Below are positions 87 to 45,705 of a stretch of DNA of 64,000 nt, piece after piece; the first letter of the stretch is position 1; every line of letters starts with the position of its first letter. The notes under the pieces were generated by a model that had not been told where the DNA came from, did no database searches, and saw only the letters and a list, made by a program, of their open reading frames with translations. The stretch comes from Flavobacteriales bacterium (GTDB lineage: Bacteria; Bacteroidota; Bacteroidia; Flavobacteriales_F; PHOS-HE28): positions 16,605 to 80,604 of the forward strand of contig JBIIYP010000013.1 in NCBI GenBank assembly GCA_044346705.1, in the 5' to 3' direction. A program made the translations under genes and the position numbers.

Positions 87-452
87 TCACAACCCCAGCT
101 CCACGACCGGGTCCCAAAAGCGCTTCGCGAAGTCGAGCACCTGGTCGTCCCTCACCTTCACGCCTTCCTTCTCCAGCAGTTCCTGCATGCGGGTCTCCGT
201 GGCGAAGTGGTGCTTGCCGGTGAGCAGGCCGTTGCGGTTCACCACGCGGTGCGCGGGCACTTTCGGCTTCACAGCGTGCGCGTTGTTCATGCAGTACCCC
301 ACGATCCGGCTGCTGCGCGTGGCACCGAGGTAGCGCGCAATAGCGCCGTAGCTCGTCACCCTTCCCTTGGGGATCTCGCGCACCACGGCCATCACGTCGG
401 CGAAGAAGTCGCGTTGTTGGATGGCACCGTTGATGAGCTGGTTCTTTGCCAT
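87..452 (-). CDS. Alkyltransferase-like (ATL) protein. MGMT/Ogt DNA-binding domain with the reactive Cys replaced (PAHR instead of PCHR). The ATG at 452 is preferred over the GTG at 482.
   Basis: The ORF translation has ...REIPKGRVTSYGAIARYLG...VPAHRVVNRNG, matching the MGMT C-terminal helix-turn-helix and active-site loop but lacking Cys. Its start codon is 3 nt from the stop of the upstream gene. Confidence 0.7.
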   Translation of the reverse strand: MAKNQLINGAIQQRDFFADVMAVVREIPKGRVTSYGAIARYLGATRSSRIVGYCMNNAHAVKPKVPAHRVVNRNGLLTGKHHFATETRMQELLEKEGVKVRDDQVLDFAKRFWDPVVELGL

Positions 453-454: not shown

Positions 455-937
455 TCACTGTGCCTTGCGCGCGGCCAACCACACCAGGAAGCGCTGTTCA
501 GCCTCAGCATCCGGGAAGGCCGACTTGTCCAGAATGATCATCTGGCCAGCGGTCAGGTAGAGCAGGTGGCGTCCATCGATCTCCATGGTGCGCTGGATGT
601 AGGACCAGGGGATCTCGCTATGTCCGCCGCCCGGTGTGGTGCCCACGAGCTTCTCGGGATCCAGCACGAAACGGCGCTCCTCGAAGATCCGCTGGTTGTC
701 CTTGCGGTGCGCCCAAGCGTAGAGCCACACGAGCATGATCAGCGGCCAGGCAAGGCTGAAAAAGGTGATGAAGGTGTGCAGGGGCTCGCCGTCCCACGTG
801 AAGAGGTAGAAAAAGCCCATGAGGATCAGCAGCCCGTAAAGCCACCCGCTCTTCCGCAGTTTCAGACGCACGATGAGCCGGAAGTAGCTCATGGGTGTCA
901 GCTGCATCGGGCGCAGCGTGATGGCTTCGGTGCTCAT
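455..937 (-). CDS. YcxB-like small membrane protein (two TM helices plus a PH-like C-terminal region)
   Basis: The ORF 455..985 has an internal ATG at 937 (MSTEAITL...). The hydrophobic stretch is LYGLLILMGFFYLFTW...LAWPLIMLVWLYAWA. Confidence 0.45.
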   Translation of the reverse strand: MSTEAITLRPMQLTPMSYFRLIVRLKLRKSGWLYGLLILMGFFYLFTWDGEPLHTFITFFSLAWPLIMLVWLYAWAHRKDNQRIFEERRFVLDPEKLVGTTPGGGHSEIPWSYIQRTMEIDGRHLLYLTAGQMIILDKSAFPDAEAEQRFLVWLAARKAQ

Positions 938-945
938 GGCAAGGC

Positions 946-1126
946 GAACCGAACGTAGTGGATCTTCCGCCCTTCGGTCAACCACATCTGCTCGTAGAAA
1001 GTGCGGATGTTGAGCACGTCCTGTTCGGCGGGTAACACGCGGTTGACGAGGTCCGCATAGACGTCATCGCTCTTCTCCAGAACCGGCAACTTGTGCTCGG
1101 CGTTCTGCTCCAGCGTGTATGCATAG
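946..1126 (-). pseudogene. Duplicated 3' fragment of trmB. About 181 bp, ~93% identical to 4306..4487, with a divergent last 3-5 codons.
   Basis: Direct nucleotide comparison of 946-1126 with 4306-4487. The translated fragment ...LEQNAEHKLPVLEKSDDVYADLVNRVLPAEQDVLNIRTFYEQMWLTEGRKIHYVRFALP matches the TrmB C-terminus. Confidence 0.85.
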
Positions 1127-1222
1127 CGAAGTCGCGTTCGTGACCGGCACTGTGGAGGAGGGTCCGTTCGGGCATGCGGCATTGTAAGGGCGAAGATCGC
1201 TCTTGTCATCACGCAAGCTAAT

Positions 1223-1918
1223 TTGTGCCGCATGGCCGCCATCCCCGAGATACGCCTTGCCGTTGATGCCATCGTGTTCGGCTACAAGAGCGGCGAATTG
1301 CTCGTGCTGTTGATCAAGCGGCGCTTCGGATCGACCAAAGGTTCATGGGCGTTGCCCGGAGGATTCGTGCTGAAACACGAAGGGCTCACCACCGCCGTCC
1401 ACCGCGAGCTGAAGGAAGAGACCGGCATCACGGTGAGCTGGATGGAGCAGCTCTACACCTTCGGCGATGATGTGCATCGGGATCCACGAAGCCGTGTGAT
1501 CTCCGTGGCCTACTTCGCGCTTGTCTGCCCTTCCACCCTGGAGCCTCAAGCGAACACGGACGCATCGGATGCCCAATGGTTCCCCTTGGAGCACATGCCA
1601 CCCCTCGCGTTCGACCATTCCGTGATCGTTAGCACCGCCCTCTCGCGCTTGCGTGCGAAGCTCTCCTATCAACCCGTTGGGTTCGAACTCCTGGACAAGG
1701 AATTCCCCTTCTCGGATCTGGAGACCTTGTACTCCACCATACTGGAACGCCCATTGGACCGTCGCAACTTCCGGAAGAAGTTCATGACCCTGGGCCTGTT
1801 GAAGTCCACGGGGAGAATTCGTCGACTTGGCGGCGGAAGGCCCGCACAGCTCTTCCGGTTCGACAGGCGCAAGTACGAGCAGCTTCAGCGGAAGGGCATT
1901 CTGCTTGACCTGACATAG
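1223..1918 (+). CDS. nrtR: NrtR-type regulator: N-terminal Nudix hydrolase domain plus C-terminal winged-helix domain (predicted NAD-salvage repressor)
   Basis: A Nudix box-like region (GGFVLKHEGLTTAVHRELKEETGI) is followed by a ~90-aa C-terminal domain. It sits immediately upstream of prs-nadV, the canonical NrtR regulon context. Confidence 0.65.
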   Translation: MCRMAAIPEIRLAVDAIVFGYKSGELLVLLIKRRFGSTKGSWALPGGFVLKHEGLTTAVHRELKEETGITVSWMEQLYTFGDDVHRDPRSRVISVAYFALVCPSTLEPQANTDASDAQWFPLEHMPPLAFDHSVIVSTALSRLRAKLSYQPVGFELLDKEFPFSDLETLYSTILERPLDRRNFRKKFMTLGLLKSTGRIRRLGGGRPAQLFRFDRRKYEQLQRKGILLDLT

Positions 1919-1976
1919 GACACCTCGATTTGCAAGATCCAAAGAAGTTCTCCATATTTGCGTATATTTTACACAA

Positions 1977-2816
1977 ATGGAGCTTCGACTGGACCCCACC
2001 TTCGATGTCCGCAGCGGTCGTCGGACGGTGCGCTTCGATTCTTCGGTATTCCCCGGTGGGGAACCGCACATACGGATACTCGAAGAGCTCGTCAGTGATG
2101 ATGAAGTGCTCGTCACCCACCGCATCAACTCCTTCAACGACCTCGGCCTCCTCTTGATCGCCATCGACGCCTTACGCCGCATGCGGATCAAGGCCGTTCG
2201 GGCAGTGATCCCCTACTTTCCGGCAGCGCGCCAGGACCGCGTGATGACACGGGGTGAAGCGCTCACCAGTAAAGTCTACGCGGAACTGATCAACGACCTC
2301 GGTCTCGATGAGGTGGTCATCTTCGACCCACACTCCGAAGTGGTGCCGGCGTTGCTTGATCATTGCACCGTGCTACAGAACCATGGATTCATCGCTCAAG
2401 TGCGGAAGCGGCTCCCAACCCCCCCCTTGCTCGTATCACCGGATGCTGGTGCGTTGAAGAAGATCCACGGGTTGGCCAAAACACTCGGCGACATGCGCGT
2501 GCTGGAATGTGGCAAGAACCGGGACGTGCGCACGGGCGCGTTGTCCGGCTTCACCGTGCCTAACGTGGACCTGGGTGGTCAACCCTGCTTGATCGTGGAC
2601 GATATCTGCGATGGAGGGGGCACTTTCCTGGGCCTCGCTGATGCCCTTCGCCTGCAGAACTCGGGACCCTTGTATCTGGCGGTAAGCCATGGCATCTTCA
2701 GCAAGGGCACCACAGCGCTGCTGCAAAAGTTCGATCGCTTGTTCACGACGGACTCCATTCGTTCAACGGAAGAGATCGGTGTGGAACGCATCGGTCTGGC
2801 CGACTTCATCCACTGA
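1977..2816 (+). CDS. prs: Ribose-phosphate pyrophosphokinase-like protein (NadV-associated Prs paralogue)
   Basis: PRPP-synthetase-like motifs are present (VSPDAGALKK..., DDICDGGGT). It is paired with nadV. Confidence 0.65.
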   Translation: MELRLDPTFDVRSGRRTVRFDSSVFPGGEPHIRILEELVSDDEVLVTHRINSFNDLGLLLIAIDALRRMRIKAVRAVIPYFPAARQDRVMTRGEALTSKVYAELINDLGLDEVVIFDPHSEVVPALLDHCTVLQNHGFIAQVRKRLPTPPLLVSPDAGALKKIHGLAKTLGDMRVLECGKNRDVRTGALSGFTVPNVDLGGQPCLIVDDICDGGGTFLGLADALRLQNSGPLYLAVSHGIFSKGTTALLQKFDRLFTTDSIRSTEEIGVERIGLADFIH

Positions 2817-2827
2817 ATACCATACGC

Positions 2828-4285
2828 ATGAACTCCCTGCTCAACACCGATGGGTACAAAGTGGATCACCGGCGGCAGTATCCGTCCGGCACCACGCTGG
2901 TCTATTCCAATTGGACACCGCGCAGATCACGCATACCCGGGATCGATGAAGTGGTCTTCTTCGGCCTTCAGTACTTCATCAAGCGCTATCTCATCGAGGA
3001 TTTTCAGGTGAACTTCTTCGCCCGGCCCAAGGAGGAGGTGGTCCGCTCCTACAAAAGGAGGATCGATACATACCTCGGTCCGAACTCCGTCGGTATCGCG
3101 CACATCGCCGCACTGCACGACCTCCGTTACCTTCCGATGGTGATCAAGGCACTCCCAGAGGGTTCATCAGTTCCGTTGCGCGTCCCGATGTGTACGATGT
3201 ACAACACGAAACCCGAGTTCTTCTGGCTGACCAACTACTTCGAGACCCTTCTTTCCACGACCCTCTGGTTACCGTGCAACTCGGCCACCGTCGCGCGCGC
3301 GTACAGGAAGAAACTCGATCACTACGCGGCTTCAACATCTTCATCAGAGGGTTTCGTCGACTGGCAGGCGCACGACTTCTCCATGCGCGGCATGGGCGGT
3401 GCCGAAGCTGCGATGCTATCCGGGGCGGGTCATCTGTTGAGCTTCTATGGCACGGACACCATACCGGCCATCGAATTCCTGGAGCAGTATTACAACGCGA
3501 ATGCCGAGAAGGAGACCATTGGTGGCTCGGTGGCAGCGACCGAACACTCCGTGATGTGCATGGGCACGGATACCGGTGAGCAGGACACCTTCGAGCGCTT
3601 GATCACGGAGATCTACCCGGGCGGGATCGTGTCCGTGGTTTCAGATACATGGGACCTGTGGAAGGTGCTCACGGAATATCTGCCCAATTTGAAGGATATA
3701 GTGCTTGCTCGTGACGGGAAACTCGTCGTACGTCCGGATAGCGGCGACCCTGCTGACATCCTCTGCGGTGACCCCAACGCTCCAGAAGGTCCGGCACACG
3801 AAGGCGTGATCCGATCACTTTGGAACACGTTCGGCGGTACGACCAATGCCAAGGGCTACCGTGAACTCGATGGCCACATCGGCGCGATCTACGGCGACAG
3901 CATCTCCCTGGATCGTGCCGAGGAGATCTGTAGCAGGCTAATGGCCAATGGATATGCGTCTACGAACGTGGTGCTTGGCATCGGGTCCTATACCTACCAA
4001 TACAACACTCGTGATACGTTCGGCTTTGCGATGAAAGCCACGTATGGTGAGGTGAACGGTTCAGGCCGTGCGATCTTCAAAGATCCGATCACGGATGATG
4101 GCACCAAGCGGTCAGCAAAGGGATTAATGAAGATCACCAAACAGAACGGTCGCTTCGTACTTCAAGAACAAGTCAGCTGGAACGAAGAGCGCGAAGGGGA
4201 ATTGTGCGAAGTGTTCAGGGATGGACGCTTGCTGATCGATGACAGCCTGAACGCCATACGGCAGCGGATCAGGAACCACGCCTGA
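2828..4285 (+). CDS. nadV: Nicotinamide phosphoribosyltransferase (NAMPT/NadV)
   Basis: The N-terminus is LLNTDGYKVDH..., length 485 aa, with the NAPRTase-family fold motif. Its stop lies 3 bp from the trmB stop (convergent). Confidence 0.8.
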   Translation: MNSLLNTDGYKVDHRRQYPSGTTLVYSNWTPRRSRIPGIDEVVFFGLQYFIKRYLIEDFQVNFFARPKEEVVRSYKRRIDTYLGPNSVGIAHIAALHDLRYLPMVIKALPEGSSVPLRVPMCTMYNTKPEFFWLTNYFETLLSTTLWLPCNSATVARAYRKKLDHYAASTSSSEGFVDWQAHDFSMRGMGGAEAAMLSGAGHLLSFYGTDTIPAIEFLEQYYNANAEKETIGGSVAATEHSVMCMGTDTGEQDTFERLITEIYPGGIVSVVSDTWDLWKVLTEYLPNLKDIVLARDGKLVVRPDSGDPADILCGDPNAPEGPAHEGVIRSLWNTFGGTTNAKGYRELDGHIGAIYGDSISLDRAEEICSRLMANGYASTNVVLGIGSYTYQYNTRDTFGFAMKATYGEVNGSGRAIFKDPITDDGTKRSAKGLMKITKQNGRFVLQEQVSWNEEREGELCEVFRDGRLLIDDSLNAIRQRIRNHA

Positions 4286-4288
4286 ACT

Positions 4289-4975
4289 TCACATGGGATC
4301 GATCCCGAACCGAACATAATGGATCTTCCGCCCTTCGGTCAGCCACATCTGCTCGTAGAAAGTGCGGATGTTGAGCACGTCCTGTTCGGCGGGTGACACG
4401 CGGTTGACGAGGTCCGCATAGACGTCATCGCTCTTCTCCAGAACCGGCAACTTGTGCTCGGCGATCTGCTCCAAGGTGTATTCATAGAGCAGCGGGCTGT
4501 CGGTCTTCAGGTGGATGAGGCCACCGGGCTTGAGCACCTCCTTGTAGCGCGCCAGGAACAAGGGGCTGGTGAGGCGCTTGCGGGCCTTGCCGATCTGCGG
4601 GTCGCTGAAGGTGAGCCAGATCTCGCCGACCTCGTGCGTGCCGAAACAACGAAGGAGATGATCGACGTGGGTGCGAACGAAACCGACGTTGTGCAGCCCG
4701 AGCTCCTTGGCCGTCCTGGCACCGCGCCAGATCCGCGCGCCCTTGATGTCCACCCCGATGTAGTTCTTCTCCGGCTCCAGCTGCGCCAGGCCCACGGTGT
4801 ACTCGCCGCCCCCACAGCCCAGCTCAAGCACCAGCGGGGCTTCGCGATGGAAGAAACCGCTGTTCCACTTCCCCTTGAACTTCAGGTCCGCAGCCTGCAG
4901 CTCCGTGAAGGTGGGTTGCACCACGTGTTCGTACGTGGCATTGTCAGCAAAGCGGCTGAGTTTGTTCTTCCCCAT
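4289..4975 (-). CDS. trmB: tRNA (guanine46-N7)-methyltransferase
   Basis: It has the SAM-binding motif LELGCGGGEYTVGLA and the TrmB C-terminus. The start is taken at the internal ATG (MGKNKLSRFADN...) rather than the 5107 ORF start. Confidence 0.8.
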   Translation of the reverse strand: MGKNKLSRFADNATYEHVVQPTFTELQAADLKFKGKWNSGFFHREAPLVLELGCGGGEYTVGLAQLEPEKNYIGVDIKGARIWRGARTAKELGLHNVGFVRTHVDHLLRCFGTHEVGEIWLTFSDPQIGKARKRLTSPLFLARYKEVLKPGGLIHLKTDSPLLYEYTLEQIAEHKLPVLEKSDDVYADLVNRVSPAEQDVLNIRTFYEQMWLTEGRKIHYVRFGIDPM

Positions 4976-7404: not shown

Positions 7405-10400
7405 TTGTGGCCCGCCATGGACAAGCTCCTTACTGCCACCGCCACACTGCTGATCACCCTGTTCCTTGGCGCCTGCGGCACCGGGGACAAAAGCGGGGAC
7501 AAGACCAGCAGCACCTCCGCAGGTCCCCTGATGCAGGTTGTGCCGGCCGAACGCTCGGGCATCACCTTCAACAACACCATCACCGAGAGCCCGGAGATGA
7601 ACTACTTCACCTACATCTACGCCTACAACGGCGGCGGTGTGGCAGCGGGCGACATCAACAACGACGGGCTCACCGACCTCTACTTCACCGGCAACCAGGT
7701 CCCGGACAAGCTCTACCTGAACAAGGGAGGCCTGAAGTTCGAGGACATCACCGAGCAGGCGATCGGAACGAAGGCGAAGGAAGGTTGGCGCACCGGGGTG
7801 AGCATGGCCGATGTGAACGGCGATGGCTGGCTGGACATCTACGTGTGCCGCAGCGGCCCCACGAGCGACACGGCGCTCACGCGCAACCTCTACTACCAGA
7901 ACAACGGCAACGGCACCTTCAGCGAGCGGGCCCATGCGCTCGGCATCGCCGATACCACGCACAGCACGCAGGCCGCCTTCTTCGATGCGGACAACGACGG
8001 CGACCTCGACCTGTACGTGATGAACCACCCGCCGGGCCGCAAGCTCGGCCTCAGCAACTTCGCCGCGCTGAAGGCGATCCAGGACCACACCGCACCCACC
8101 GATCGCTTCTATCGGAACGAAGGCGGGCGCTTCACCGAGTCCACCTACGCCGCCGACCTTCAGAACTACGCGTACAGCCTGGGGCTGGGCATCGCGGACA
8201 TCGACCAGGACGGGTGGAGCGACATCTACGAGGCCAACGACTTCGACGCGCCGGACCTGATGTACCTCAACCGCACCGACGGCACCTTCGGCGAGCGGTC
8301 GCAGTTCCGCACGCGCCACACGAGCAACTTCGGCATGGGCTGCGACATCGCGGACTACAACAACGATGGCCTGCCGGACATCATGGTGCTGGACATGACG
8401 GCGGACGACCACAAGCGCAACAAGACCAACATGGGCAGCATGAGCCCGGAGCGGTTCTGGGCCAACGTGCGCGGCGGTTACTTCTTCCAGTACATGGTGA
8501 ACACGCTGCAGCTCAACAACGGCAACGGCACCTTCAGCGAGGTGGCGCAGCTCGCCGGCGTGGCGCGCACGGACTGGAGCTGGGCACCGCTATTCGCCGA
8601 CCTGGACAACGACGGCTGGAAGGACCTGATGATCACCAACGGCTTCAAGCACGACGTGCGCAACAATGATTATGCGCGTGGTACCTACGACAAGTTGAAG
8701 ACGGGCGCCGACTTCTACGGCACGCTGGACCTGATCCCCAGCACCAAATTGCGCAACTACCTCTTCCGCAACAACGGCGACCTCACCTTCGCCGACAGCT
8801 CGCAGGCCTGGGGCTTCACTGTGCCCGAGAACAGCAATGGAGCGGCTTATGCGGACCTCGACAACGACGGCGACCTGGACCTGGTGATCAACAACCTCGA
8901 TGAGGTGGCCACCGTCCACGAGAACACTGCGACCAGCCGCTTCCCGGACCGCCACTGGTTGCGGCTGAAGCTGACCAGCGGCAAGAGCGCCGCGTTAGCG
9001 GCAAAGGCGTATGTGCGCCACAAGGGCAGCCTGCAATACCAGGAACTCTCCCCCGTGCGCGGCTACCAGAGCACTGTGGAACCGTACCTGCATTTCGGCC
9101 TCGGGAGCGCCAGTACCGTGGACACCCTCGAGGTGCGCTGGCCCAACGGCACCCACAGCCTGCTCACCGGGGTGAAGCCCGACCAACTGCTGACACTGGA
9201 CCAGAAGGACGGCAGACCGCTCCCCACCGCCCCGGCGGTCCAAACGCTCTTCACCGACGTTCGGAGTTCGCTGAACGCCGACATGGTTCACGTGGAGAAC
9301 GCGTACGATGACTTCGCGCTCGAAGTGCTGCTTCCCCACAAGCAGAGCGAACAGGGCCCCTTGCTCGCCACGGCCGATGTGAACGGCGATGGGCGCGAGG
9401 ACGTGTTCATGGGCGGCTCCTACGTGAAGCCCGCGTCGCTGTGGCTGCAGCGTGCCGATGGCGGATTCGAAGCGGCGCGTTCACAACCCTGGAAGCAATA
9501 CACCATGCAGGAGCAGTTGGGCGGCGTGTTCTTCGATGCGGACAAGGACGGTGACATGGACCTGGTTGTCCTCGCCGGCTCCAATGAAGCGGACCTGCGC
9601 GAGGCGGCTTACACGCAACGCCTCTACCTCAACGATGGCAAGGGCGCTTACCGTGAGGTGAAGGATGCCCTCTCCTTCGTGATGACCAGCGCGCACAGCG
9701 CGGCCGCATCGGACATCGATGGCGATGGCGACCAGGACCTGTTCATCGGCGGGCGACAGACACCGGCGCACTACCCGTTCGCACCACGCAGCTACCTGTT
9801 GATCAACGACGGCACCGGCAGGTTCACCGACGCCACCCAACAGCTGGCCCCTGCCGTGATGGGCCCCGGGATGGTGACCGGCGTACGCTTCGCGGACATG
9901 GACAACGACCGCGATCCGGACCTTGTGATCGCTGGGGAATGGATGGGCATCATGGTCCTGTTGAACGAAAAGGGCCACTTCCTCGATGCCACTGTACCTG
10001 CGGGCCTGCAGGGCATGAAAGGCTGGTGGAGCGCGCTGACCACCGCCGATGTGAACGGTGACGGGCGCATGGACATCATCGCCGGCAACCTGGGCTGGAA
10101 CAGTAAATTCCATGGTACCGCGGAACACCCGGTGCACATCTACTGGGCCGACTTCGACGACAACGGACGGCACGACATCGTGCTGGCCAAGGAGAAGGCC
10201 GGGAAGCAACTGCCCGTGCGCGGCCGCGAATGCAGCAGCCAGCAGTGCCCGCGGATCCTGCAACGCTTCCCCACGTACCAGCAATTCGCGGATGCCGATC
10301 TCACCGCCATCTATACGCCCGAGAAGCTCGCCGGATCGCTTCACTTGCAGGCCACCTGGATGCTCAGCACCGTGCTGCTATCCAACGCCGATGGCACCTT

Positions 10401-10758
10401 CACGCCCAAACCCCTGCCGAACGCTGCGCAGGTATCACCCATCAACGGCATCGTTGCGCTGGACGTGAACAGCGACGGCCACTTGGACCTGGTCTGCGCC
10501 GGCAACCATTGGGGCGCAGAGGTGGAGACGGTGCGTTACGATGCCAGCATCGGCAGTGTCCTGTTGGGCAACGGCAAGGGGGATTTCCATGCGATGCCGG
10601 CCACCAGAAGCGGCTTCGTGGCCTGGGGCAACGTGAAGGACCTGGCACTGATCCAGCGCAACGGAAGGCGTACCGTGCTGGTGGCCAACAACAACGACGC
10701 CGTGCAGGCCTACGAACTGCGCGGCACCACGAAGCCTACTTCGACCGCTGCAAAGTGA
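7405..10758 (+). CDS. CRTAC1-family lipoprotein with FG-GAP/VCBS repeats and an ASPIC/UnbV domain
   Basis: It has a lipobox (LFLGAC), repeated DxNxDGxxD calcium-binding FG-GAP motifs, and ...LEVRWPNGTHS (ASPIC/UnbV signature). Confidence 0.75.
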   Translation: MWPAMDKLLTATATLLITLFLGACGTGDKSGDKTSSTSAGPLMQVVPAERSGITFNNTITESPEMNYFTYIYAYNGGGVAAGDINNDGLTDLYFTGNQVPDKLYLNKGGLKFEDITEQAIGTKAKEGWRTGVSMADVNGDGWLDIYVCRSGPTSDTALTRNLYYQNNGNGTFSERAHALGIADTTHSTQAAFFDADNDGDLDLYVMNHPPGRKLGLSNFAALKAIQDHTAPTDRFYRNEGGRFTESTYAADLQNYAYSLGLGIADIDQDGWSDIYEANDFDAPDLMYLNRTDGTFGERSQFRTRHTSNFGMGCDIADYNNDGLPDIMVLDMTADDHKRNKTNMGSMSPERFWANVRGGYFFQYMVNTLQLNNGNGTFSEVAQLAGVARTDWSWAPLFADLDNDGWKDLMITNGFKHDVRNNDYARGTYDKLKTGADFYGTLDLIPSTKLRNYLFRNNGDLTFADSSQAWGFTVPENSNGAAYADLDNDGDLDLVINNLDEVATVHENTATSRFPDRHWLRLKLTSGKSAALAAKAYVRHKGSLQYQELSPVRGYQSTVEPYLHFGLGSASTVDTLEVRWPNGTHSLLTGVKPDQLLTLDQKDGRPLPTAPAVQTLFTDVRSSLNADMVHVENAYDDFALEVLLPHKQSEQGPLLATADVNGDGREDVFMGGSYVKPASLWLQRADGGFEAARSQPWKQYTMQEQLGGVFFDADKDGDMDLVVLAGSNEADLREAAYTQRLYLNDGKGAYREVKDALSFVMTSAHSAAASDIDGDGDQDLFIGGRQTPAHYPFAPRSYLLINDGTGRFTDATQQLAPAVMGPGMVTGVRFADMDNDRDPDLVIAGEWMGIMVLLNEKGHFLDATVPAGLQGMKGWWSALTTADVNGDGRMDIIAGNLGWNSKFHGTAEHPVHIYWADFDDNGRHDIVLAKEKAGKQLPVRGRECSSQQCPRILQRFPTYQQFADADLTAIYTPEKLAGSLHLQATWMLSTVLLSNADGTFTPKPLPNAAQVSPINGIVALDVNSDGHLDLVCAGNHWGAEVETVRYDASIGSVLLGNGKGDFHAMPATRSGFVAWGNVKDLALIQRNGRRTVLVANNNDAVQAYELRGTTKPTSTAAK

Positions 10759-14215: not shown

Positions 14216-15226
14216 ATGCACCCTCCCCTGCCCCCTCCCTACCAGGACCTGGCCGATCGGGTGTTCGCGGTAACGGATGCCGAAGCGTTCAACGCAGTGG
14301 CGCTCGACCTATTTCGTCTCCACGCCGCCCACAACCTCGTTTACCGTGGATTCCTGAAGGGATTGGGCACCACCGTCGAGGCGGTGGAACGCGTGGCCGA
14401 CATCCCCTGCCTGCCCATCGGCCTGTTCCGCAACCACCGCGTGTTGCTGGAAGGGCTGGAGCCTGCCGTCACCTTCACCAGCAGCGGCACCACAGGAGCC
14501 GTCACCAGCTCCCACCATGTGCCATGGCCTTCGCTGTACGAACGCTCCTTCCTCCGCTCGTTCGAAGCGGTATACGGCCCGGTGGCCGAATGGCGGATCC
14601 TGGCGGTGTTGCCCGCCTACCTGGAGCGCACTGGCAGCTCGCTGGTGTACATGGCCGAACAGCTCATCGCCCGTAGCGGCGATCCGATGAGCGGCACCTA
14701 CCTCTACCAGTACGATCGCCTGGCTGAATTGCTGAAGCAGAGCGAGGCCGAAGGGAAGAAGACCCTACTGTTGGGCGTCACCTTCGCGCTGCTCGACATC
14801 GCGGAACAGCACCCCATACCCCTGCGCCACACTACCATCATGGAGACCGGCGGCATGAAAGGGCGGAGACCGGAGCTGGTGCGCGATGAGCTGCATGCGC
14901 TCCTGAAGCAGGCCTTCAGTGTACCTGCCATCCACAGCGAATACGGCATGACGGAACTGCTGTCCCAGGCGTGGAGCACGGGTGAAGGGACCTACCGTTG
15001 CCCACCCTGGATGCAGGTGCTCGTGCGCGACCCCAACGACCCCTTCGAACGCCTCGGCACCGGTCGCACCGGCGGCGTGGACGTGATCGACCTTGCCAAC
15101 ATCGCCAGCTGCCCCTTCATCGCCACACAGGACCTCGGTCGGGTGGCCGCGGATGGCTCCTTCGAAGTGCTGGGCCGCTTCGACTTCAGCGACCTGCGCG
15201 GGTGCAACTTGTTGGTGGTGGAGTGA
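14216..15226 (+). CDS. LuxE-like acyl-protein synthetase / acyltransferase family protein
   Basis: A 337-aa protein from the internal ATG (MHPPLPPPYQ...). It has an adenylate-forming-like core (TSSGTTG..., ...ETGGMKGRR...) characteristic of the LuxE family. Confidence 0.5.
   Translation: MHPPLPPPYQDLADRVFAVTDAEAFNAVALDLFRLHAAHNLVYRGFLKGLGTTVEAVERVADIPCLPIGLFRNHRVLLEGLEPAVTFTSSGTTGAVTSSHHVPWPSLYERSFLRSFEAVYGPVAEWRILAVLPAYLERTGSSLVYMAEQLIARSGDPMSGTYLYQYDRLAELLKQSEAEGKKTLLLGVTFALLDIAEQHPIPLRHTTIMETGGMKGRRPELVRDELHALLKQAFSVPAIHSEYGMTELLSQAWSTGEGTYRCPPWMQVLVRDPNDPFERLGTGRTGGVDVIDLANIASCPFIATQDLGRVAADGSFEVLGRFDFSDLRGCNLLVVE
15169..15226. repeat. Direct repeat copy 1 (3' end of the luxE-like gene including its stop), partner at 16371..16427
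   Basis: gctgggccgcttcgacttcagcgacctgcgcgggtgcaacttgttggtggtggagtga compared with the copy at 16371 (2 mismatches). Confidence 0.85.
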
Positions 15227-15280: not shown

Positions 15281-16033
15281 TCATCCTTTGAGGCGCATGG
15301 CCTGCCGCGCCACATCGACCAATTGCGGGTCGCCTTTGGCAAGCAAATAGAACTGAATGAACCAGTAGGGCATCTGTTGAAGGTCCCAGGACCATTGCTG
15401 GCCACCATCGCCCACCTTCATCTCTGCGAACATCACCGGCTCCTCCCCACTATTGTCGAACAAGAACGCGTGGTAGCACAGATCCAACGCAGGTACCAGT
15501 TGCTTCAAGGACCTCCAGTACCGTTCCATGATCTTCTCGGTTGGAACATCATGACCGCCTTGCTTGACCCTGGTCTTCACCCGGTCAATATTCATGAGCG
15601 GGGATTCCGTGGCCACGAAATAGAGGTAAACCTTATAGCCGTTCTTCCTAGCCTTGTCCATTACGGCCAACTTGGAGGAGTGGCTGAACACCGTTTCGAA
15701 CGAGAGCTTCTTGGCTCGTTTGATCAACAGGTGAACAATGTGCTGGGCAAGGAGCTGGGCATACCGTTGTGAGTCAACCGGTGCCTTGATCTTGAACACG
15801 TTCACACCCCAAGTCTGCCCTTTGCGGAACCAGAGCAGATCAGCGGGGCCTGGCAACAGACCACTGCTACGCGCGAATCGTTCGAAGACAAGCTTGTTGC
15901 TGTGGACCCCGAAATTCAGAAGGTTCAAGTGCTTGGTCGTGCGAAGGATCCGCTCGATCTCATCCGGGTTCACATACACGCCCATGTCCACCGGACGGCC
16001 ATTCACAAAAGCCTCTCGCACCTTGGTGTACAT
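15281..16033 (-). CDS. Zeta-toxin/COG4185-like P-loop kinase homologue with a degenerate Walker A (putative toxin or pseudo-toxin)
   Basis: The C-terminal region has ...KQGGHDVPTEKIMERYWRS and the N-terminal motif VNPDEI, typical of zeta-like kinases. The expected GxxGxGKS/T is replaced by GRPVDMG. Confidence 0.4.
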   Translation of the reverse strand: MYTKVREAFVNGRPVDMGVYVNPDEIERILRTTKHLNLLNFGVHSNKLVFERFARSSGLLPGPADLLWFRKGQTWGVNVFKIKAPVDSQRYAQLLAQHIVHLLIKRAKKLSFETVFSHSSKLAVMDKARKNGYKVYLYFVATESPLMNIDRVKTRVKQGGHDVPTEKIMERYWRSLKQLVPALDLCYHAFLFDNSGEEPVMFAEMKVGDGGQQWSWDLQQMPYWFIQFYLLAKGDPQLVDVARQAMRLKG

Positions 16034-16328: not shown

Positions 16329-16370
16329 GGTCCAAAGTTAAGGACGCCACTAATGCTTGAGGTGGACGCT

Positions 16371-16427
16371 GCTGGGCCGCTTCGACTTCAGCGACCTGCG
16401 GGGATGCAACTTGTTGGTGGTGGAGTG
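16371..16427. repeat. Direct repeat copy 2 of the luxE-like 3' end
   Basis: See 15169..15226. Confidence 0.85.
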
Positions 16428-16455
16428 AACGATCACCTCCCTGGCACGAGCAGCA

Positions 16456-17127
16456 CTACAAATGGTAGTAGTACAGGTTGCCCTCGAAGTTCGTGTCCAG
16501 GTTCGCCTTGCTATCGAAGAAGACCTGCTCCGTGGGAGCCTTGCAATACCCGAACTCATCATGCGCGGTGATCAACCGGGCATAGGCCGAGGCGATCACT
16601 GCATGTGAGCCATCGGAACTGCTCCGCAGCAGCTGGTCCTCCGTGTGGAAGAAGCAGGTAACGGTGCTTCCGAACCGATCGAACATCCAGACCCCATGCT
16701 CGGCGAACTGAACGACCAATGCGTCTATCTGCGCTTGTGGGATCCGCTGGTTGCATTCCGCCTTGGCGATGGGCTCGAACGCAGTGATGATCAGGAAGGG
16801 CTCGGAGCCGGTGCTTCCTGATGAAGGACCAACGGGCAACTGTGCGATCGCGCTCGCGTGGAAGGCCTTCCATATCCTGGCTTCCTTGGCGCCATCGATC
16901 TGCAGCGGACCTGACCAAAAGCCCGCCGCTTCGGCATAGCGTTCGAAGACCACCATCAACCTGGCCCGGCCGGCCGTTGCGACCCACTCGTAAAGGATGT
17001 TGAGCGGCCGCATGCCGAACTCCTGTTGGAGCCGATCCGCCAATTCGGACCCCGGCACGCCCATGCGATCAAGTCCCTGCTTGATCCGTTTCGTGGCTTG
17101 ATAATCCGGGTCGGAAGGAACGATCAT
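16456..17127 (-). CDS. Hypothetical protein (223 aa), downstream of tyrS
   Basis: An ORF with coding-like composition. No recognisable motifs. Confidence 0.35.
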   Translation of the reverse strand: MIVPSDPDYQATKRIKQGLDRMGVPGSELADRLQQEFGMRPLNILYEWVATAGRARLMVVFERYAEAAGFWSGPLQIDGAKEARIWKAFHASAIAQLPVGPSSGSTGSEPFLIITAFEPIAKAECNQRIPQAQIDALVVQFAEHGVWMFDRFGSTVTCFFHTEDQLLRSSSDGSHAVIASAYARLITAHDEFGYCKAPTEQVFFDSKANLDTNFEGNLYYYHL

Positions 17128-22137: not shown

Positions 22138-25100
22138 TCAACGCACAAGGGTCACACTGCCTGTGCGGTCCAGACGCTCTCCGGAATACGCATCCTTACC
22201 CGTGATCTTCCACACGTAAACGCCGACCGGCACGGGGTCACCATTGGGGAAGTTGCCGCTCCACTGCGCATCGGGATCGGCGGTGTCGAACAAGATCTGT
22301 CCCCAGCGATCCAAGATGAGGAAGCGGTGGTAGCGCCGGTCGACCCCTTGCATTACGGGGAAGAAGCGGTCGTTGATGCCATCGCCGTCCGGAGAGAAGG
22401 CGGTCGGCACGAACAAGCCGGCACCGGGTTCGATCGTCACCAGGGCGCAGGCGGTATCGAGGCAGGTCGGCGACACCGCGGCCGTCAGGCAGACCAGGTA
22501 GCTGTCCGAAAGCGCCGAGGGGAACTCGATCACCGGCTCCTGCTCGGTGCTCGCGGCGAAAGTGCCGAAGGACCAGAGGAAGGACGTGGCACCAAGGCTG
22601 TTGTTCTGGAAGGTGACGAGCGGCGCATTGGTGGTGATGACCTCCGGTGCGCTGGTGAAGCTGGCCACGGGCGCTGCATAGACCGCGATGGGCGCCTGGC
22701 CGGCCACCGTACCGCTGCACCCCGATCCAACATCGACCGTGAGGGTGACGACATAGTTCCCCGGCACATCGTAGACCACGGTATCACCGCCGCATTGGGA
22801 GGAGGTCTGTCCATTCCCGAGATCCCACAAGCAATTCCCTGCCACGGGCTGGTCCGTGCTGAACACCACCGACACCGGCGCACAGCCCTCACCCACCAAG
22901 CTGGTAATGGTCGGTTCCGGTACTGCGATGATCGTCACATCCACGGTGCTGCTCGCTTGAGGACACGGTGCCGGGGCGCTGACGGTATAGACATAGGCGC
23001 CGCCCATGGCGGAGGAAGGATCAAGCGCAGGGCCGCATGGAACGCCCCCAGGACCCATCCATGCGCCACCGGATTGTGGAGCTCCACCCAACGCTTGAAA
23101 AAGGTCGATCGGCGTTCCATTGGAGCAAGCGGTGACGCTGCCCGGTGTACCCGCATCGGCCACCGGGCTCACTCCCACCTGTACGACCGCATTGTCCGAT
23201 AGGCAGGGCGCGGTACCATCCACGGTGTAGACATAGGCACCTGGCGCATCCGTTCCGGGTTGGAAGGTCCCGGAAGGCACTGCGCCGTTGGGCCCGGACC
23301 AAAGTCCACCCGCCTGGGGTGCGCCACCCAATAAGATGAACAAGGACTGCGCGGCATCCGCACTGCAGAACATGACCATGGCATCCACGCCGGCAGAGGG
23401 TGCCTGGGAAACGGCCATGGTCACTGTGGCCGAGACCGAAGGACAAGGCAACGAAGGCGATACGGTGTAGACGTAATTGCCGGGGGACCCGGTGGCCGGC
23501 AAGAAGATCGCGCTCACTGCGCCACCGCCCGGACCGGTCCAAGAGCCACCGGGATCGGGTGTGCCACCGAGCAGGGTGAACAGGTCCACGGGCTGGGCCA
23601 CCGAACACAGCGTCGAACTGCCATCGCTGCCTGCATCACCGGCCTGCCCGATGGCCACGGTGACCGTGGCCTGGTCACCAGGACAACTGCCCGCACCAGG
23701 CAGGGAATACTGGAAAACACCGGCCGGACCGAGGGCTGGGTCCAAGGTGCCGGACATGGCCACACCACCAGGCCCGGTCCACCAACCCGTGGTGTCCGGC
23801 GTACCGCCCAAGGATGCGAAGAGGTCCATCACGGGGCCTGAGGAGCAGGCGGAGACAGCTGCGCTCTGTCCTGCATCCGGGCCGGCCAGAACACCGACCG
23901 TGACAACGGCTTGATCCGTGGGACAGCCCGGGCTCGAGATGGTATAGGTGTACGCTCCGGGAAGCGTATTCCCGGGAACGAACGGCCCGAAGAAGGGTGC
24001 TCCATTGGGATCGGTCCAGGTGCCGCCGACATCCGGAGTGCCGCCCAAGGCATTGAACAGGCCGAGCGGTGCGGTGCTGGTGCAGACCGAGAGCACCGAA
24101 TCGAGCCCGGCATCGACCGACAGCGAAACAAGGACCGTGAGCGTGGCAGTGGGCAGTGGACCCAGGCATGTGCCCGGAGCAGGAACGATGTACGTGTACG
24201 TGCCCGGGAGCCATGTGGCCGGATCGAAGGTCGAGGATACCACGGTGTTGTTGGGGTCCAGCCAGGTACCCGTACTATCGGGTGAACCAAGCAGGGAATC
24301 GGTCATGAACACGGGTGCTCCGGTCGCGCACAGCACGATGGAATTGCTGAGGCCCGCGGTCGGATCGGGCACCACATCCACGGTGATGATAGCGGTATCC
24401 GAAGCGCAGGCGATACCCTGAACGACATACGCGTAGGCTCCCTCCAGGGCGGAAGCAGGATCGAAGAGCCCGATGAACGGGGCTCCGTTGGGATCGGTCC
24501 ACGTGCCCGTGGTCATGGCGCCCGGAGCCAGCACGGAGCTCAAGGGGAAAGGGATGTAGTTCCCACAGACCACGAACTGCACATCCGCTCCGGCCAATGG
24601 CTGCGGCTCAACGGAGACCGTCACCGCGGCTTGATCGCTCACGCATGGCGCTGTCGCGGAGATCAGGTAGGTGTATGTGCCCGGAGCATCCACCGCGGGG
24701 TCGAAGCTCCCGTTGAAGACCGTACCCGCGGGACCGGTCCATGCACCGCCGCCCTGCGCACCTGCCAGCAAAGCGAAGAGGTCCGTTGATGCGGCGCTGG
24801 AGCACACCACGACGGCGGAATCAGTACCGGCGGAAGGTGATCCCGTCTCGCTCACCGTAACGGTCGCCTGATCGTTCGGGCACGGCGCTGTGCCGGTCAC
24901 CGTATAGCTGAACACACCTGGTGCATCCAGCTGCGGATCATAGGTGCCGCTGAAAGCCACACCCCCAGGGTCGGTCCAACCGCCACCGGATTGGGCACCG
25001 GTCAGCGCGCTCTCCAAACTCACCGCCCCGCCTTGGTCGCAAACGGTCAACGTACCGTCGACACCCGCATTCGCCGCATTCGTCACCGTCGTGGTCACCG

Positions 25101-40382: not shown

Positions 40383-40518
40383 GCGGGGGCAGCGCAAGGT
40401 CGGGAATGTGGACTTTACAACAATTAACTGCCTGGCGGTGAATATCTGACGTTCATCGGTCACCCTGCATCATTGGTGATCGTACTTTAGTGGCATCCCT
40501 ACCACGGCACCTCTGAAC

Positions 40519-41268
40519 ATGTTCGAGAATTTCCCGGTCAAGGTCGTTGACCCCTTGCCCTCGCGGATAGATCCATGCCCTATTGTGCAAGCGATCTTCG
40601 AGATACGCTTCACAACGACCACGCCTTGGGCTCAACTGCCAGGCAGGGTGGAACGATTGCTGGGGGATGAGTACGTAGGTCAGGAACTCCCCCTGTTCGA
40701 ACTGCCCAACCAATTCAAGCAGCAGATCCCGGGCAGTGTTTACCTACCTCAGTACCAGTTCCACTCGGAACAGTTCGTAGTGAACCTTGCACCACAGATG
40801 ATCGGGCTGGGGGTCCAAACCATGAGCTATCCGGGTTGGTCGGTGGTGCAAGCAGAGTTGAGCACATTCCTAGACAAGATCGTTTCCGATGGATTCATGG
40901 AAGAGGGCGCACGGCTTGGCATCCGTTACAGTGACTTCTTCGAGCTGAACATCTTCGAACATATCGATCTTGACATCCATGTGAACGGGAAGGCCATCAA
41001 GGACAAGGATCGCCAGTTCACAACCGTTTTCCAGGAAGGTCCAATGACCATTCGTTTGGTTCTTATCAATGGCGCCATCATGGAGAACTCACATGGTCCA
41101 CGTCGTGGCTCGGTGTTGGATATCGATGTGGCTTTCGGTCCATTGGACTTCGATCTTAAGACCAATGTGCTGGACCGCTTCACAGAAGCCCACGATGTGA
41201 TCAAGAAGCTGTTCTTTGGCCTCGTTAAGCCTGACATGCTGGATTCACACAAGCCCGAGTACGTATGA
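40519..41268 (+). CDS. Hypothetical protein (249 aa), possibly TIGR04255-like. First gene of a 3-gene operon embedded in the type I R-M locus.
   Basis: The N-terminal ...PIVQAIFEIRF... pattern. Lower GC than the flanks. Its stop overlaps the next gene's start. Confidence 0.4.
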   Translation: MFENFPVKVVDPLPSRIDPCPIVQAIFEIRFTTTTPWAQLPGRVERLLGDEYVGQELPLFELPNQFKQQIPGSVYLPQYQFHSEQFVVNLAPQMIGLGVQTMSYPGWSVVQAELSTFLDKIVSDGFMEEGARLGIRYSDFFELNIFEHIDLDIHVNGKAIKDKDRQFTTVFQEGPMTIRLVLINGAIMENSHGPRRGSVLDIDVAFGPLDFDLKTNVLDRFTEAHDVIKKLFFGLVKPDMLDSHKPEYV

Positions 41269-41723
41269 GCAACAAGATCCACTTCGCTGAACCCCGGGTG
41301 TACAAGTTGGACGAGGATCTCCAAACCAACATGGATCCCGGCATGTGGTCCACCACGCTATCCGCAGATGAGCAGGACCTGCTTATCAAGAAGCTGGGCG
41401 ACCGCGGTTGGGGCCGTATGCTACTCTTCTCCAAGTACTACACGCCCGATTGGGGTGAAGGGAATAGGCAGGTCTCTCCGCGTGCACAAGCCACAATGAT
41501 GCGGTTCCTTGAGCATGTGACTTTCCGCAAGGGTGCCGATCCAAGTGTCTTCCTCTCCAACGATGGCGAGTTGCAGGTGGCATGGAGCGACACGAGCGGC
41601 AAAGCTGTTCAATTGCTCTTTGGCCCGAACTCGATCGAAGTGTTACATGAGGCGCAACTCCGTGAAGAGTCATTGCCATTGTCCGCTTATGATAAGCTCG
41701 CCCAGGAATTCAGTCATGTCTGA
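41265..41723 (+). CDS. Hypothetical protein (152 aa), second gene of the operon
   Basis: ATGA overlap with the upstream gene. No recognisable motif. Confidence 0.4.
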   Translation: MSNKIHFAEPRVYKLDEDLQTNMDPGMWSTTLSADEQDLLIKKLGDRGWGRMLLFSKYYTPDWGEGNRQVSPRAQATMMRFLEHVTFRKGADPSVFLSNDGELQVAWSDTSGKAVQLLFGPNSIEVLHEAQLREESLPLSAYDKLAQEFSHV

Positions 41724-42171: not shown

Positions 42172-42255
42172 GTAGGGCTGTTCTTGCGCGATTCCGTGTC
42201 AAGCCCGTAATGACAGCCTACACGAACATCTGCGAACAGCCCCTCAGCGGCCTCA

Positions 42256-43886: not shown

Positions 43887-43960
43887 GGTGATTCAGTGTA
43901 TGCTGGCTTCGAGTGCCTCAGCCAGCGGCGAGATCGGGCCCTGAGGTTCTCGAAGGGCCA

Positions 43961-45604: not shown

Positions 45605-45705
45605 GGTGGGGCTCGCCGAAGTTTCGGCGGGGGTGAAGGGGTGTAAAATACCTATGCGGAAGCGAACGGGAGCCTCGTGGCTTGCCTGCGCATCCTGCTC
45701 CACCC

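Follow-up and report, generated by a model that had tools for sequence, protein, structure and literature searches.

A NAD-salvage operon between two copies of the trmB 3' end in a freshwater Flavobacteriales bacterium: a probable recombination scar derived from a related chromosome

Insertion of foreign DNA at the 3' end of a gene is best known from genomic islands at tRNA genes and from the cis-mobilisable elements (CIMEs) found together with ICESt1 and ICESt3 at fda of Streptococcus thermophilus. Additive flexible genomic islets, a concept of population genomics, spread by homologous recombination in conserved flanks. Homology-facilitated illegitimate recombination, reportedly described in natural transformation by de Vries and Wackernagel and by Prudhomme et al., both in 2002, in its canonical form usually deletes recipient DNA, whereas the locus described below carries a duplication. 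NrtR-regulated prs-nadV operons with the arrangement nrtR-#prs-nadV are known from Cytophaga hutchinsonii, Shewanella oneidensis and Chromobacterium violaceum (Rodionov et al. 2008, PMC2330246), and a 21-bp palindromic NrtR operator with a GT-N7-AC core was described in the same study.

In an uncultured freshwater Flavobacteriales bacterium, the nrtR, prs and nadV genes have a copy of the trmB 3' end on either side, both in the same orientation. Within the stretch of 64,000 nucleotides that was analysed (the window), the locus comprises the following features.

87-449, minus strand: resident ogt-like gene of 120 aa with no domain other than the MGMT DNA-binding one (PF01035), listed as context only
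455-937, minus strand: ycxB, native gene downstream of trmB, YcxB-like membrane protein of 160 aa (Pfam PF14317)
934-1126, minus strand: trmB', pseudogene fragment made of the native tail ...RFALP* (934-944) and repeat copy A (945-1126)
1127-4305, no strand: putative inserted DNA of 3179 bp, absent from empty-site relatives and collinear without gaps with the filled lineage L118
1128-1175, minus strand: ogt', probable remnant of a foreign ogt-like gene (its first 16 codons, MPERTLLHSAGHERDF), from alignment to ogt of lineage L101
1176-1231, no strand: divergent nrtR-ogt intergenic spacer, probably imported (37/55 identical to the L101 spacer, z = 6.2)
1232-1918, plus strand: nrtR, Nudix-related transcriptional regulator whose Nudix box is intact (PF00293, 76.4 bits; PF21906 NrtR_WHD, 74.8 bits)
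1957-1977, plus strand: candidate NrtR operator TTTGCGTATATTTTACACAAA, palindromic over 21 bp around a GT-N7-AC core and overlapping the prs start codon
1977-2816, plus strand: prs paralogue, ribose-phosphate diphosphokinase (TIGR01251, 148 bits against a cutoff of 113)
2828-4285, plus strand: nadV, nicotinamide phosphoribosyltransferase (NF006629, 587 bits against a cutoff of 405; NAMPT_N and NAPRTase), convergent with trmB
4289-4305, minus strand: trmB tail (..G)IDPM*, probably imported, in register with native trmB
4289-4975, minus strand: intact trmB, tRNA m7G46 methyltransferase of 228 aa (NF001080, 259 bits against a cutoff of 132)
4306-4487, minus strand: repeat copy B, the native 3' part of intact trmB (3-4 differences in 182 nt from the empty-site lineages L114 and L111)

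Judged by its sequence, the cassette itself is a known kind of operon, an NrtR-regulated prs-nadV. As in the published operons (PMC2330246), nrtR is followed by prs-nadV, the second Prs is a dedicated one, a GT-N7-AC palindrome of 21 bp lies directly upstream of prs, and the regulator combines an N-terminal Nudix domain with a C-terminal winged helix of NrtR type, both domains being matched. There is no essential difference. The regulator scores 141.8 bits against NF050029 (ADPR-responsive repressor), which is below the equivalog cutoff of 400 and indicates membership at the family level only. The sequence TTTGCGTATATTTTACACAAA occurs once in the window, where 0.04 matches were expected by chance, and was kept in 5/5 aligned cassettes. 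The prs and nadV genes lie 11 nt apart in one operon. Presumably, NrtR bound to the 21-bp operator represses this operon until ADP-ribose releases it; the two enzymes Prs and NadV, we assume from their families, would then convert nicotinamide to NMN. The original prediction had named an NrtR-type Nudix regulator, a Prs paralogue and NadV, and the Pfam and NCBIfam profile scores bear it out. It had also described a segment of lower GC, which agrees with a G+C content of 0.52-0.60 in the cassette and 0.61-0.68 in the flanks. By composition the cassette is foreign to its surroundings. GC3 is 0.71-0.77 in the cassette and 0.81-0.89 in the flanks; as it is somewhat below that of the flanks in every lineage, composition is only weak evidence for recent acquisition.

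The bracketing of the operon by direct repeats, also part of the original prediction, was recovered by a repeat search (945-1131 and 4306-4492, 187 nt, 95%), by BLAST (945-1126 and 4306-4487, 174/182 nt identical) and in metagenome contigs. The repeats are real, and the identity of about 93% first given was slightly low compared to the 95.6% obtained by BLAST. Their true limits, 945-1126 and 4306-4487 with a junction at 1126-1128, were set by alignment to empty-site relatives. A 41-nt repeat core occurs exactly twice in the window and in none of 100 shuffles. Fourteen independently assembled metagenome contigs, 99.2-100% identical to the window, cross each repeat copy into its own flanks, so the arrangement is not an assembly artefact. 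Two finer points made at the outset were found as stated: the nadV stop (4283-4285) and the trmB stop (4289-4291) are separated by 3 nt, and the copies differ in their terminal codons, RFALP* in the fragment and RFGIDPM* in intact trmB.

The comparison with cassette-free relatives that had been suggested as a check yielded clean empty sites with a single trmB (L111-L114, L116, L108 and L006). In the close relatives L111-L114 and L116, a 226-aa trmB ending in RFALP* overlaps ycxB, and both flanks are 94-97% identical to the window (for L114, 95.4% on the right and 97.2% on the left). L108 and L006 represent more distant empty sites, and the trmB tail reads RFA(L/I)P* in all ycxB-bearing empty sites examined at this position (L006, L108, L111, L114, L116). 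The empty site corresponds exactly to the left flank of copy A, one repeat and the right flank of copy B. A different order is found in at least six lineages (L012, L101/L102, L103, L107, L109, L110), in which trmB> <nadV-prs-nrtR is present with no repeats; ogt adjoins nrtR in L012, L101, L107 and L109. In all cassette-bearing relatives trmB ends in RFGI(S/N/L/EAN)*, wherever its end was read. The nearest cassette relatives are Flavobacteriales chromosomes with 75-90% amino-acid identity, and the closest NadV outside the group is 90% identical; the donor itself would lie outside the sampled lineages. In some relatives a Macro-domain gene has been added after nadV. The insert could be excised as one piece from a chromosome with the order trmB> <nadV-prs-nrtR ogt>, for which L012, L101, L107, L109 and L110 were counted, and the occurrence of this repeat-free order in more distant relatives suggests that it is a slice of such a chromosome.

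Both ends of the insert carry gene fragments. One end consists, in register, of the last five codons of a foreign trmB (RF|GIDPM*), and the other reaches as far as codon 16 of an ogt-like gene that is likewise foreign. The homology-side joint lies at the extreme end of trmB and leaves the frame unbroken (..HYVRF|GIDPM*), the tail being of the donor type RFGI..; trmB was reconstituted, as had been proposed, with a new tail brought in by the insert. The ogt' remnant is identical to the 5' end of L101 ogt at 36/48 nt (z = 8.7 against shuffles). The adjacent spacer has no similarity to the upstream region of the window's own ogt (z = 0.4) and would carry the nrtR promoter together with the former ogt promoter. 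At the second joint (1126-1128, trmB CATAG-C-GAAGTCGCG ogt'), which is illegitimate with at most 2 nt of microhomology, ogt codon 16 is joined to approximately codon 165 of trmB. This position is 182 nt upstream of the in-register joint, and consequently 182 nt of native trmB are found on both sides of the insert. The same two junctions are present, collinear without gaps, in three lineages (the window, L117 and L118).

Each repeat copy carries the SNPs of its own lineage and differs from that lineage's empty site at only 3-10 of 182 nt, while donor-like relatives are only 76-81% identical to the copies. These comparisons argue that the target's own sequence makes up both copies along their full 182 nt. 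Copy B retains all conserved TrmB residues. Copy A is a 65-codon trmB fragment that ends in RFALP*, overlaps the ycxB start and matches positions 167-222 of the TrmB profile NF001080; it carries three derived replacements (E>A, I>N, S>L) at residues invariant in 10 relatives and, on this evidence, is decaying as a pseudogene next to ycxB. The ycxB ATG overlaps the native trmB stop (ATGA), an overlap also present at the empty sites of L108, L111, L114 and L116. Copy A of L082, L088 and L096 carries copy-B alleles at 955, 958 and 981, and at 4395 the copy-A allele segregates in copy B, a pattern that indicates exchange between the copies by gene conversion.

Combined, these observations lead us to propose, with a probability of about 0.8, that the 3179-bp segment 1127-4305 came from a related Flavobacteriales chromosome of the trmB-operon-ogt type, was inserted into a trmB-ycxB genome in a single event and then spread. 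In the donor, the nrtR-prs-nadV operon would reside permanently between trmB and the ogt-like gene; the segment would have been copied or cut from there and joined to a recipient with the local order trmB-ycxB through one homology-guided joint in the trmB tail and one illegitimate joint 182 nt upstream. It may have entered by a template switch during replication or repair, by a donor fragment bridging two sister chromosomes, or as a circularised fragment that integrated in the Campbell manner, the copies being homogenised later. Each of these routes would rest on recombination and replication functions of the host without an element-encoded recombinase. The native-like rather than hybrid character of both copies would fit a template switch, as it would gene conversion at a later time. 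A point against the model is the position of the in-register joint at the very limit of the homology, since a donor of about 80% identity has little matching sequence to offer there. The proposed event shares with homology-facilitated illegitimate recombination one homology-guided joint at a conserved gene, one illegitimate joint with minimal microhomology and the lack of an element-encoded recombinase; it differs in that 182 nt were duplicated, whereas recipient DNA is deleted or replaced in the canonical process. Laboratory insertion-duplication (Campbell-type) integration likewise leaves the insert between two copies of the homologous target, but both copies look native here and not like donor/recipient hybrids.

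Among other histories, the one that fares best, though improbable, starts from a tandem duplication from trmB codon 165 to ogt codon 16 that made the ogt'|trmB' joint, after which homologous recombination exchanged one duplicate for the alternative gene content. Such a duplication yields exactly this type of joint, and in their central part the repeats hardly differ. However, two rare events are required, one of them a replacement for which only ogt' with its 48 nt, or a diverged trmB, could serve as anchor; both the spacer and the ogt' remnant are of the foreign and not the resident ogt type, and the intermediate was seen in no relative.

We consider it quite unlikely that the insert is a site-specific integrative element, or a cis-mobilisable remnant of one, with an attP mimicking the trmB 3' end, the repeats as attL and attR, and a tyrosine or serine recombinase encoded elsewhere acting on trmB. 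Direct repeats at a gene 3' end, gene reconstitution, clean empty sites and presence/absence polymorphism would all be expected of it, the empty sites being predicted by recombination as well. ICESt1/ICESt3, CIMEs and tRNA-gene islands indeed share a 3'-end insert that restores the gene, direct repeats, and empty and filled alleles; they differ from the present locus, which has no integrase, no defined att core, long native repeats and termini that are chromosomal gene fragments of a relative. As already noted in the original prediction, no integrase was found: Pfam detected no recombinase among the scanned window genes or in calls covering 7 kb on the left and 15 kb on the right, about 70 kb in all, although one encoded beyond this region might act in trans. 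The insert encodes only nrtR, prs and nadV, with no transposase, and neither inverted repeats nor att-like ends were found; nor does a 182-nt duplication resemble the short fixed-length target duplication of transposons and IS elements. Ends derived from an element's attP and travelling with the cargo were considered and rejected: the ends come from a relative's chromosome, where they are the tail codons of trmB and codons 1-16 of ogt, and the same cargo is repeat-free in L012, L101, L103 and L107. Neither site-specific integration, the initial reading, nor an integrative element mobilised in trans is supported, given ends made of chromosomal fragments, repeats that are native and lineage-specific over all 182 nt, and a donor order of genes that at least six lineages share in fixed, repeat-free form. 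Comparable duplications elsewhere (41-101 nt at ogt, 59-70 nt at a LuxE-like gene) differ in length and junctions and have no cassette termini in common. Similar 3'-end duplications nearby flank a toxin-antitoxin pair and a zeta-toxin-like gene, and the 3' end of the resident ogt (85-185) belongs to another repeat pair, its partner lying outside the window. It had also been remarked that nadV modules travel on phages and plasmids. This holds in general (382 phage records match) but does not apply here: these matches reach only 63-70% identity over parts of nadV, compared to the 75-90% amino-acid identity of Flavobacteriales chromosomes. In the plasmid and phage collections the cassette region has no more than weak, partial nadV matches, and viral contigs lack the repeat core.

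A reversed direction, in which trmB-cassette-ogt is ancestral and a relative with ycxB supplied trmB'-ycxB(-ogt) through recombination that was homologous on one side and illegitimate on the other, is equally hard to sustain. The ogt'|trmB' junction is symmetrical as to direction, ycxB is patchily distributed, and the GC3 of the cassette fits this order of events. Against it, close relatives (flanks 94-97%) that miss one part all miss the cassette and never ycxB, cassette-only genomes are diverged by at least 15-20%, copy B is native-like, the GIDPM tail is 100% conserved along with the insert, and the insert is better conserved between lineages than ycxB and copy A. A chimeric assembly join at the repeat can be dismissed: several short contigs terminate inside the repeat, but the 14 that cross each copy come from independent samples and assemblers, and the two copies differ at fixed positions.

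From the composition of its ends and repeats, the insert is best described as a recombination scar and not a self-mobile element. After the founding event, it would have passed between lineages of about 95% identity through ordinary homologous exchange of the flanking DNA. The inserts of the window and of L118 share 96-99% identity, compared to 91.5-92.7% for ycxB and copy A, and an insert more conserved than one flank fits transfer by flanking homology. This feature and the presence/absence polymorphism among strains of 95-99% identity are shared with additive flexible genomic islets; here, in contrast, the founding illegitimate event is still legible in two gene fragments and a 182-nt duplication. 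In the trmB' fragment the ATGA overlap of stop and start is preserved, and the fragment may, together with the ogt promoter region that was imported, maintain ycxB expression. The repeats should permit precise, RecA-mediated loss of the cassette, and some empty sites of close relatives could be secondary losses through repeat-repeat recombination and not ancestral. The empty L116 and the filled L117 are 99.1% identical over 1403 nt; near-identical strains thus exist with and without the insert, and one population holds both states. The NAD-salvage insert at present persists as a presence/absence polymorphism, with its repeat copies under gene conversion.

The 3' end of trmB is present in two direct copies around nrtR-prs-nadV, as the original prediction had described, and this arrangement was confirmed by repeat search, BLAST and domain matches. 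The repeat search of the window returned the pair 945-1131 and 4306-4492 (187 nt, 95% identity) and BLAST returned 945-1126 and 4306-4487 (182 nt, 95.6%); comparison with empty sites placed the repeat at these 182 nt. A 41-nt core of the repeat occurs exactly twice in the window and not at all in shuffled sequences. The features of the locus are the following.

945-1126: copy A, on the side of the YcxB-like gene ycxB; 3' fragment of trmB (trmB')
1127-4305: insert of 3179 bp
1128-1175, minus strand: ogt', remnant encoding MPERTLLHSAGHERDF, the N-terminus of an ogt-like gene
1957-1977: candidate operator TTTGCGTATATTTTACACAAA, overlapping the prs start
4306-4487: copy B, the end of intact trmB

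The intact TrmB (228 aa) ends in copy B and matches NF001080 with 259 bits for a cutoff of 132. The fragment in copy A spans 65 codons and retains a match to the TrmB C-terminus. The terminal codons differ between the two copies as predicted, RFGIDPM* in intact trmB and RFALP* in copy A, and the stop of the latter overlaps the ATG of ycxB. The genes bracketed by the copies are nrtR (Nudix and NrtR winged helix domains), a Prs paralogue and nadV; the nadV and trmB stops are 3 nt apart and the G+C of the cassette is below that of the flanks, both as anticipated. Since the same arrangement was found in at least 14 independently assembled metagenome contigs (99.2-100% identity), an assembly artefact is excluded. 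In L094, a contig of the window's own population, about 21 nt (window 4441-4461) are missing within copy B and trmB is called at 261 aa; this may be a true in-frame variant or else an error of assembly at the repeat.

Sites devoid of the cassette were found in relatives. The first, L108, was located with a gapped DNA pattern of the predicted empty joint; it carries a single trmB ending in RFALP* and overlapping ycxB (89% nucleotide identity). Closer relatives were drawn from the 90%-identity YcxB cluster. Flank identity to the window is 94-97% in the empty loci L111-L113, L114 and L116, each of which is made up of exactly one repeat between the left flank of copy A and the right flank of copy B. 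The expectation of a clean empty site with a single trmB in cassette-free relatives was thus borne out in L108, L111-L114 and L116, and with it the proposal that the insertion rebuilt an intact trmB. In L114, identity to the window is 95.4% on the right flank and 97.2% on the left flank, where the match runs through ogt, a toxin-antitoxin pair, Mrp and NifU. Two further loci, L117 and L118, are filled; their ycxB flank has diverged differently, and they show the same two joints with no gaps. The YcxB protein is the same in the empty L116 and the filled L117, which match at 99.1% over 1403 nt, so the cassette is a presence/absence polymorphism in one population.

Similarity of the window to several ycxB-bearing relatives stops at 442-457, near the ycxB-ogt boundary; in L108 the match breaks off no more than a few codons from the beginning of ogt. 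The left ends of L111 and L116 carry genes for Por_Secre_tail proteins instead of ogt, and that of L108 unrelated sequence. These breaks place ycxB itself at a rearrangement breakpoint. An incoming ycxB had been considered because the N-terminal part of TrmB is closest to L001/L103 and the C-terminal part to L006/L108; it was dropped after the clean empty sites in close relatives argued against it. A mosaic trmB was also abandoned, the signal being too weak (L108 is 79-84% identical all along trmB).

To identify the source of the insert, gene order around trmB was compared in relatives. A genome scan with TrmB identified a clade of uncultured high-G+C Flavobacteriales MAGs (TrmB 73-86% identical) with the conserved order endonuclease, glycosyltransferase, trmB, ycxB in some, and ogt-like gene, with one trmB and no cassette. 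In one member, L012, nadV-prs-nrtR sits between trmB and ogt, and NadV homologues at 84-90% identity led to further cases (L101/L102, L103, L107, L109 and L110). In all of these nadV, or nadV followed by a Macro-domain gene, is convergent on trmB, and nrtR is divergent from ogt in L012, L101, L107 and L109. Self-comparison of L012, L101, L103 and L107 revealed no trmB repeat. Outside this group, NadV is only 75-76% identical and occurs in many Flavobacteriaceae, a kinship that marks the cassette as of Flavobacteriales chromosomal type. Phage and plasmid collections gave only partial nadV matches (63-70% identity), and the repeat core was absent from viral contigs.

The Macro-domain gene lies directly after nadV in L101 (9459-9914), L109 (3792-4247) and L110 (1543-1998) and is not in the window cassette; its position fits a link of ADP-ribose metabolism to the NrtR regulon. 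In L103 (129-947), a 272-aa Transpeptidase-family protein (PF00905), by eye presumably similar to class D beta-lactamases, is encoded between nrtR and ogt without a flanking repeat.

Both ends of the insert match this donor-like order. At the ycxB end, ogt' is identical to the ogt of L101 at 36 of 48 nt (z = 8.7), and the 56 nt beyond it match the nrtR-ogt spacer of cassette-bearing relatives at 37 of 55 positions (z = 6.2), with no similarity to the upstream region of the window's own ogt (z = 0.4). At the trmB end, the intact gene finishes in HYVRF-GIDPM*; an RFGI(S/N/L/EAN)* tail is found in every cassette-bearing relative read there (L012, L101, L103, L107, L110) and an RFA(L/I)P* tail at every ycxB-bearing empty site examined there (L006, L108, L111, L114, L116). 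Combined, the ogt remnant, the spacer and the GIDPM tail indicate that the insert is a single continuous slice of a chromosome with trmB convergent on nadV-prs-nrtR followed by ogt. From these alignments, the boundaries of the slice are the last trmB codons and ogt codon 16. Joint 1 is in register, at the end of trmB homology. Joint 2, 182 nt upstream of joint 1, is illegitimate, with at most 2 nt of microhomology (trmB CATAG / C / GAAGTCGCG ogt').

A chimeric ORF of 82 codons (934-1182, minus strand) starts at an ATG that lies 7 nt upstream of that of ogt' and continues in frame through trmB' to the ATGA overlap with ycxB; gene callers list its product as hypothetical, with a length of 82 or 102 aa. 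Rather than encoding a functional protein, the ORF may act in translational coupling.

The repeats themselves bear on how the slice arrived. The original prediction had read them as the product of site-specific integration or of mobilisation in trans. Both copies bear the SNPs of the lineage in which they sit, with only 3-10 differences in 182 nt from its empty allele, and donor-like relatives are 76-81% identical to the repeats, which argues that the repeats are the duplicated native target and not att sites borne by an element. The absence of a nearby integrase had been correctly noted: no recombinase was found in the insert, in the Pfam-scanned window genes or in the precomputed annotations, which cover 7 kb on the left and 15 kb on the right. 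With native repeats, ends lying in chromosomal gene fragments and no recombinase nearby, the att/integrase reading was dropped in favour of a slice of a relative's chromosome.

The copies differ mainly at both repeat edges. At residues invariant in 10 relatives, copy A has 3 derived replacements and copy B none; judged from this comparison, copy A is a decaying fragment. Position 1121, 5 nt from the joint, is the sole copy-A-specific position across all filled alleles. No remnants of donor-type sequence were found at the repeat edges; where copy A differs near the junction, the change is either derived and unique or a polymorphism that native alleles also show. In the population of the window, copy A of L082, L088 and L096 contains linked copy-B alleles and one copy-A allele segregates in copy B, a pattern that indicates apparently ongoing gene conversion between the copies.

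Insertion of the chromosomal slice would have been driven by host recombination and replication functions. The scar could have arisen by template switching to and from a relative's DNA, by a donor fragment that bridged sister chromosomes, or by Campbell entry of a circularised fragment with subsequent conversion; these candidates are indistinguishable here, and each predicts the absence of a recombinase. Because the joints are identical in three lineages, the founding event was single. Comparison of the window with L118 gives 96-99% identity for the insert and 100% for the GIDPM tail, against just 91.5-92.7% for ycxB with copy A, a contrast that fits subsequent transfer by homologous recombination, one crossover lying within copy A or close to it. 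Recombination between the repeats may have generated some of the empty alleles as revertants, their sequence being compatible with either origin. Low GC3 is weakened as proof of recent import, since cassette GC3 is below that of the flanks in every lineage.

The nrtR-prs-nadV cassette is an already known operon type. The NrtR family, including that of Cytophaga hutchinsonii, is characterized by the order nrtR-#prs-nadV, a dedicated Prs paralogue and a 21-bp GT-N7-AC palindrome (PMC2330246), all of which the window cassette shares. The candidate operator occurs once in the window, where chance alone would give 0.04 matches, and is conserved in 5 cassettes. The window NrtR scores under the NCBIfam equivalog cutoff, so membership is claimed at the family level only. 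By eye, TTTG-type motifs precede the candidate operator. Bacteroidota promoters differ from the sigma-70 consensus, and TTTG-type motifs have been reported for Bacteroidetes promoters. On the ycxB side, the trmB' fragment would preserve the overlapping ATGA of trmB' and ycxB, and ycxB-ogt may be transcribed from a promoter within the imported spacer.

Similar 3'-end duplications were found at two other genes, with the following features.

85-185: ogt 3'-end repeat, stop codon included; partner outside the window at L081:4588-4688 (L081 coordinate = window + 5296)
15168-15226 and 16370-16428: LuxE-like 3'-end repeats, 59 nt, 97%, stop codon included
15281-16033: Zeta_toxin-like gene, convergent, 250 aa, GC3 0.73
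16456-17127: 223-aa ORF with no Pfam match, between the LuxE-like fragment and tyrS

Between the ogt repeats (101 nt, 96%), just beyond the left end of the window, lies a convergent HepT/MNT toxin-antitoxin pair. In L009 and L008 the pair lies in repeats of 71 nt (98.6%) and 75 nt (85%), respectively, with other junctions. L008:11147-12792 is an array of ogt, a 245-aa unknown ORF, a 41-nt ogt fragment, HepT/MNT, a 75-nt ogt fragment and mrp. L114 and L115 carry HepT as a fragmented gene. The LuxE-like (acyl-protein synthetase) repeats bracket the Zeta_toxin-like gene; relatives have tyrS directly next to the LuxE-like gene, in convergent orientation. At the same site in L008 (4400-5892), LuxE-like 3'-end repeats of 70 nt surround an AAA_14/DUF4143 ATPase, and no cassette termini are common to the window and L008 cargoes. 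Because repeat lengths and junctions vary, recurrent homology-guided events are favoured over site-specific recombination; the search could detect only repeat-bearing cases, which biases the apparent regularity. L001:16205-17029 was rejected as a further parallel: its 63-nt direct repeats (92%) fall after the stop of a 2-oxoacid:ferredoxin oxidoreductase beta-subunit gene and enclose a transposase-like ORF (243 aa, by eye presumably of RAYT/IS200-type HUH type), a different kind of insertion.

Other features of the window were recorded. A 1113-aa FG-GAP/ASPIC (UnbV) protein (7405-10758), encoded between the endonuclease and a histidine kinase, is present in close relatives (L111) and, among distant clade members, at this position only in L025 (69%); this patchy presence suggests another lineage-specific insertion. 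About a dozen tandem 237-nt units (23492-27376, 60-84% identity) are probably repeat domains of one very large surface protein on the minus strand. Two low-GC3 ORFs with no Pfam match (40480-41268 and 41521-42171) lie within a type I restriction-modification system.

37476-45832: type I restriction-modification system
37476-40469: hsdR
42256-43461: hsdS
43416-43892: GIY-YIG protein
43961-45832: hsdM

The trmB duplication could be one case of systematic recombinase-free gene gain in this Flavobacteriales clade, with entry at stop codons and cargo excisable and re-insertable by RecA; we consider this broader reading unlikely, at roughly one chance in five. By such a route, the conserved 3' end of a relative's gene would guide cargo to the stop codon and leave a direct duplication of 40-190 nt, which would let the cargo exit as a circle and re-enter empty relatives by RecA alone, as a 'homology-borne' mobile cassette. 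Instances may include trmB, the ogt-like and the LuxE-like genes in the window genome, and the ogt-like and LuxE-like genes with other cargo in L008/L009.

In conclusion, the scar provides a well-documented example from nature of gene gain independent of an integrase; its target duplication is long, and it segregates as a polymorphism in the wild. It is unusually legible for a metabolic operon acquired with no mobile-element machinery: public data suffice to recover both parental orders, the empty site, the exact joints, the later gene conversion and the live presence/absence polymorphism. It also cautions that direct repeats at a gene 3' end are not proof of an integrase-driven island. For this freshwater Flavobacteriales population, it means that some strains gain a regulated nicotinamide salvage that their closest relatives lack.
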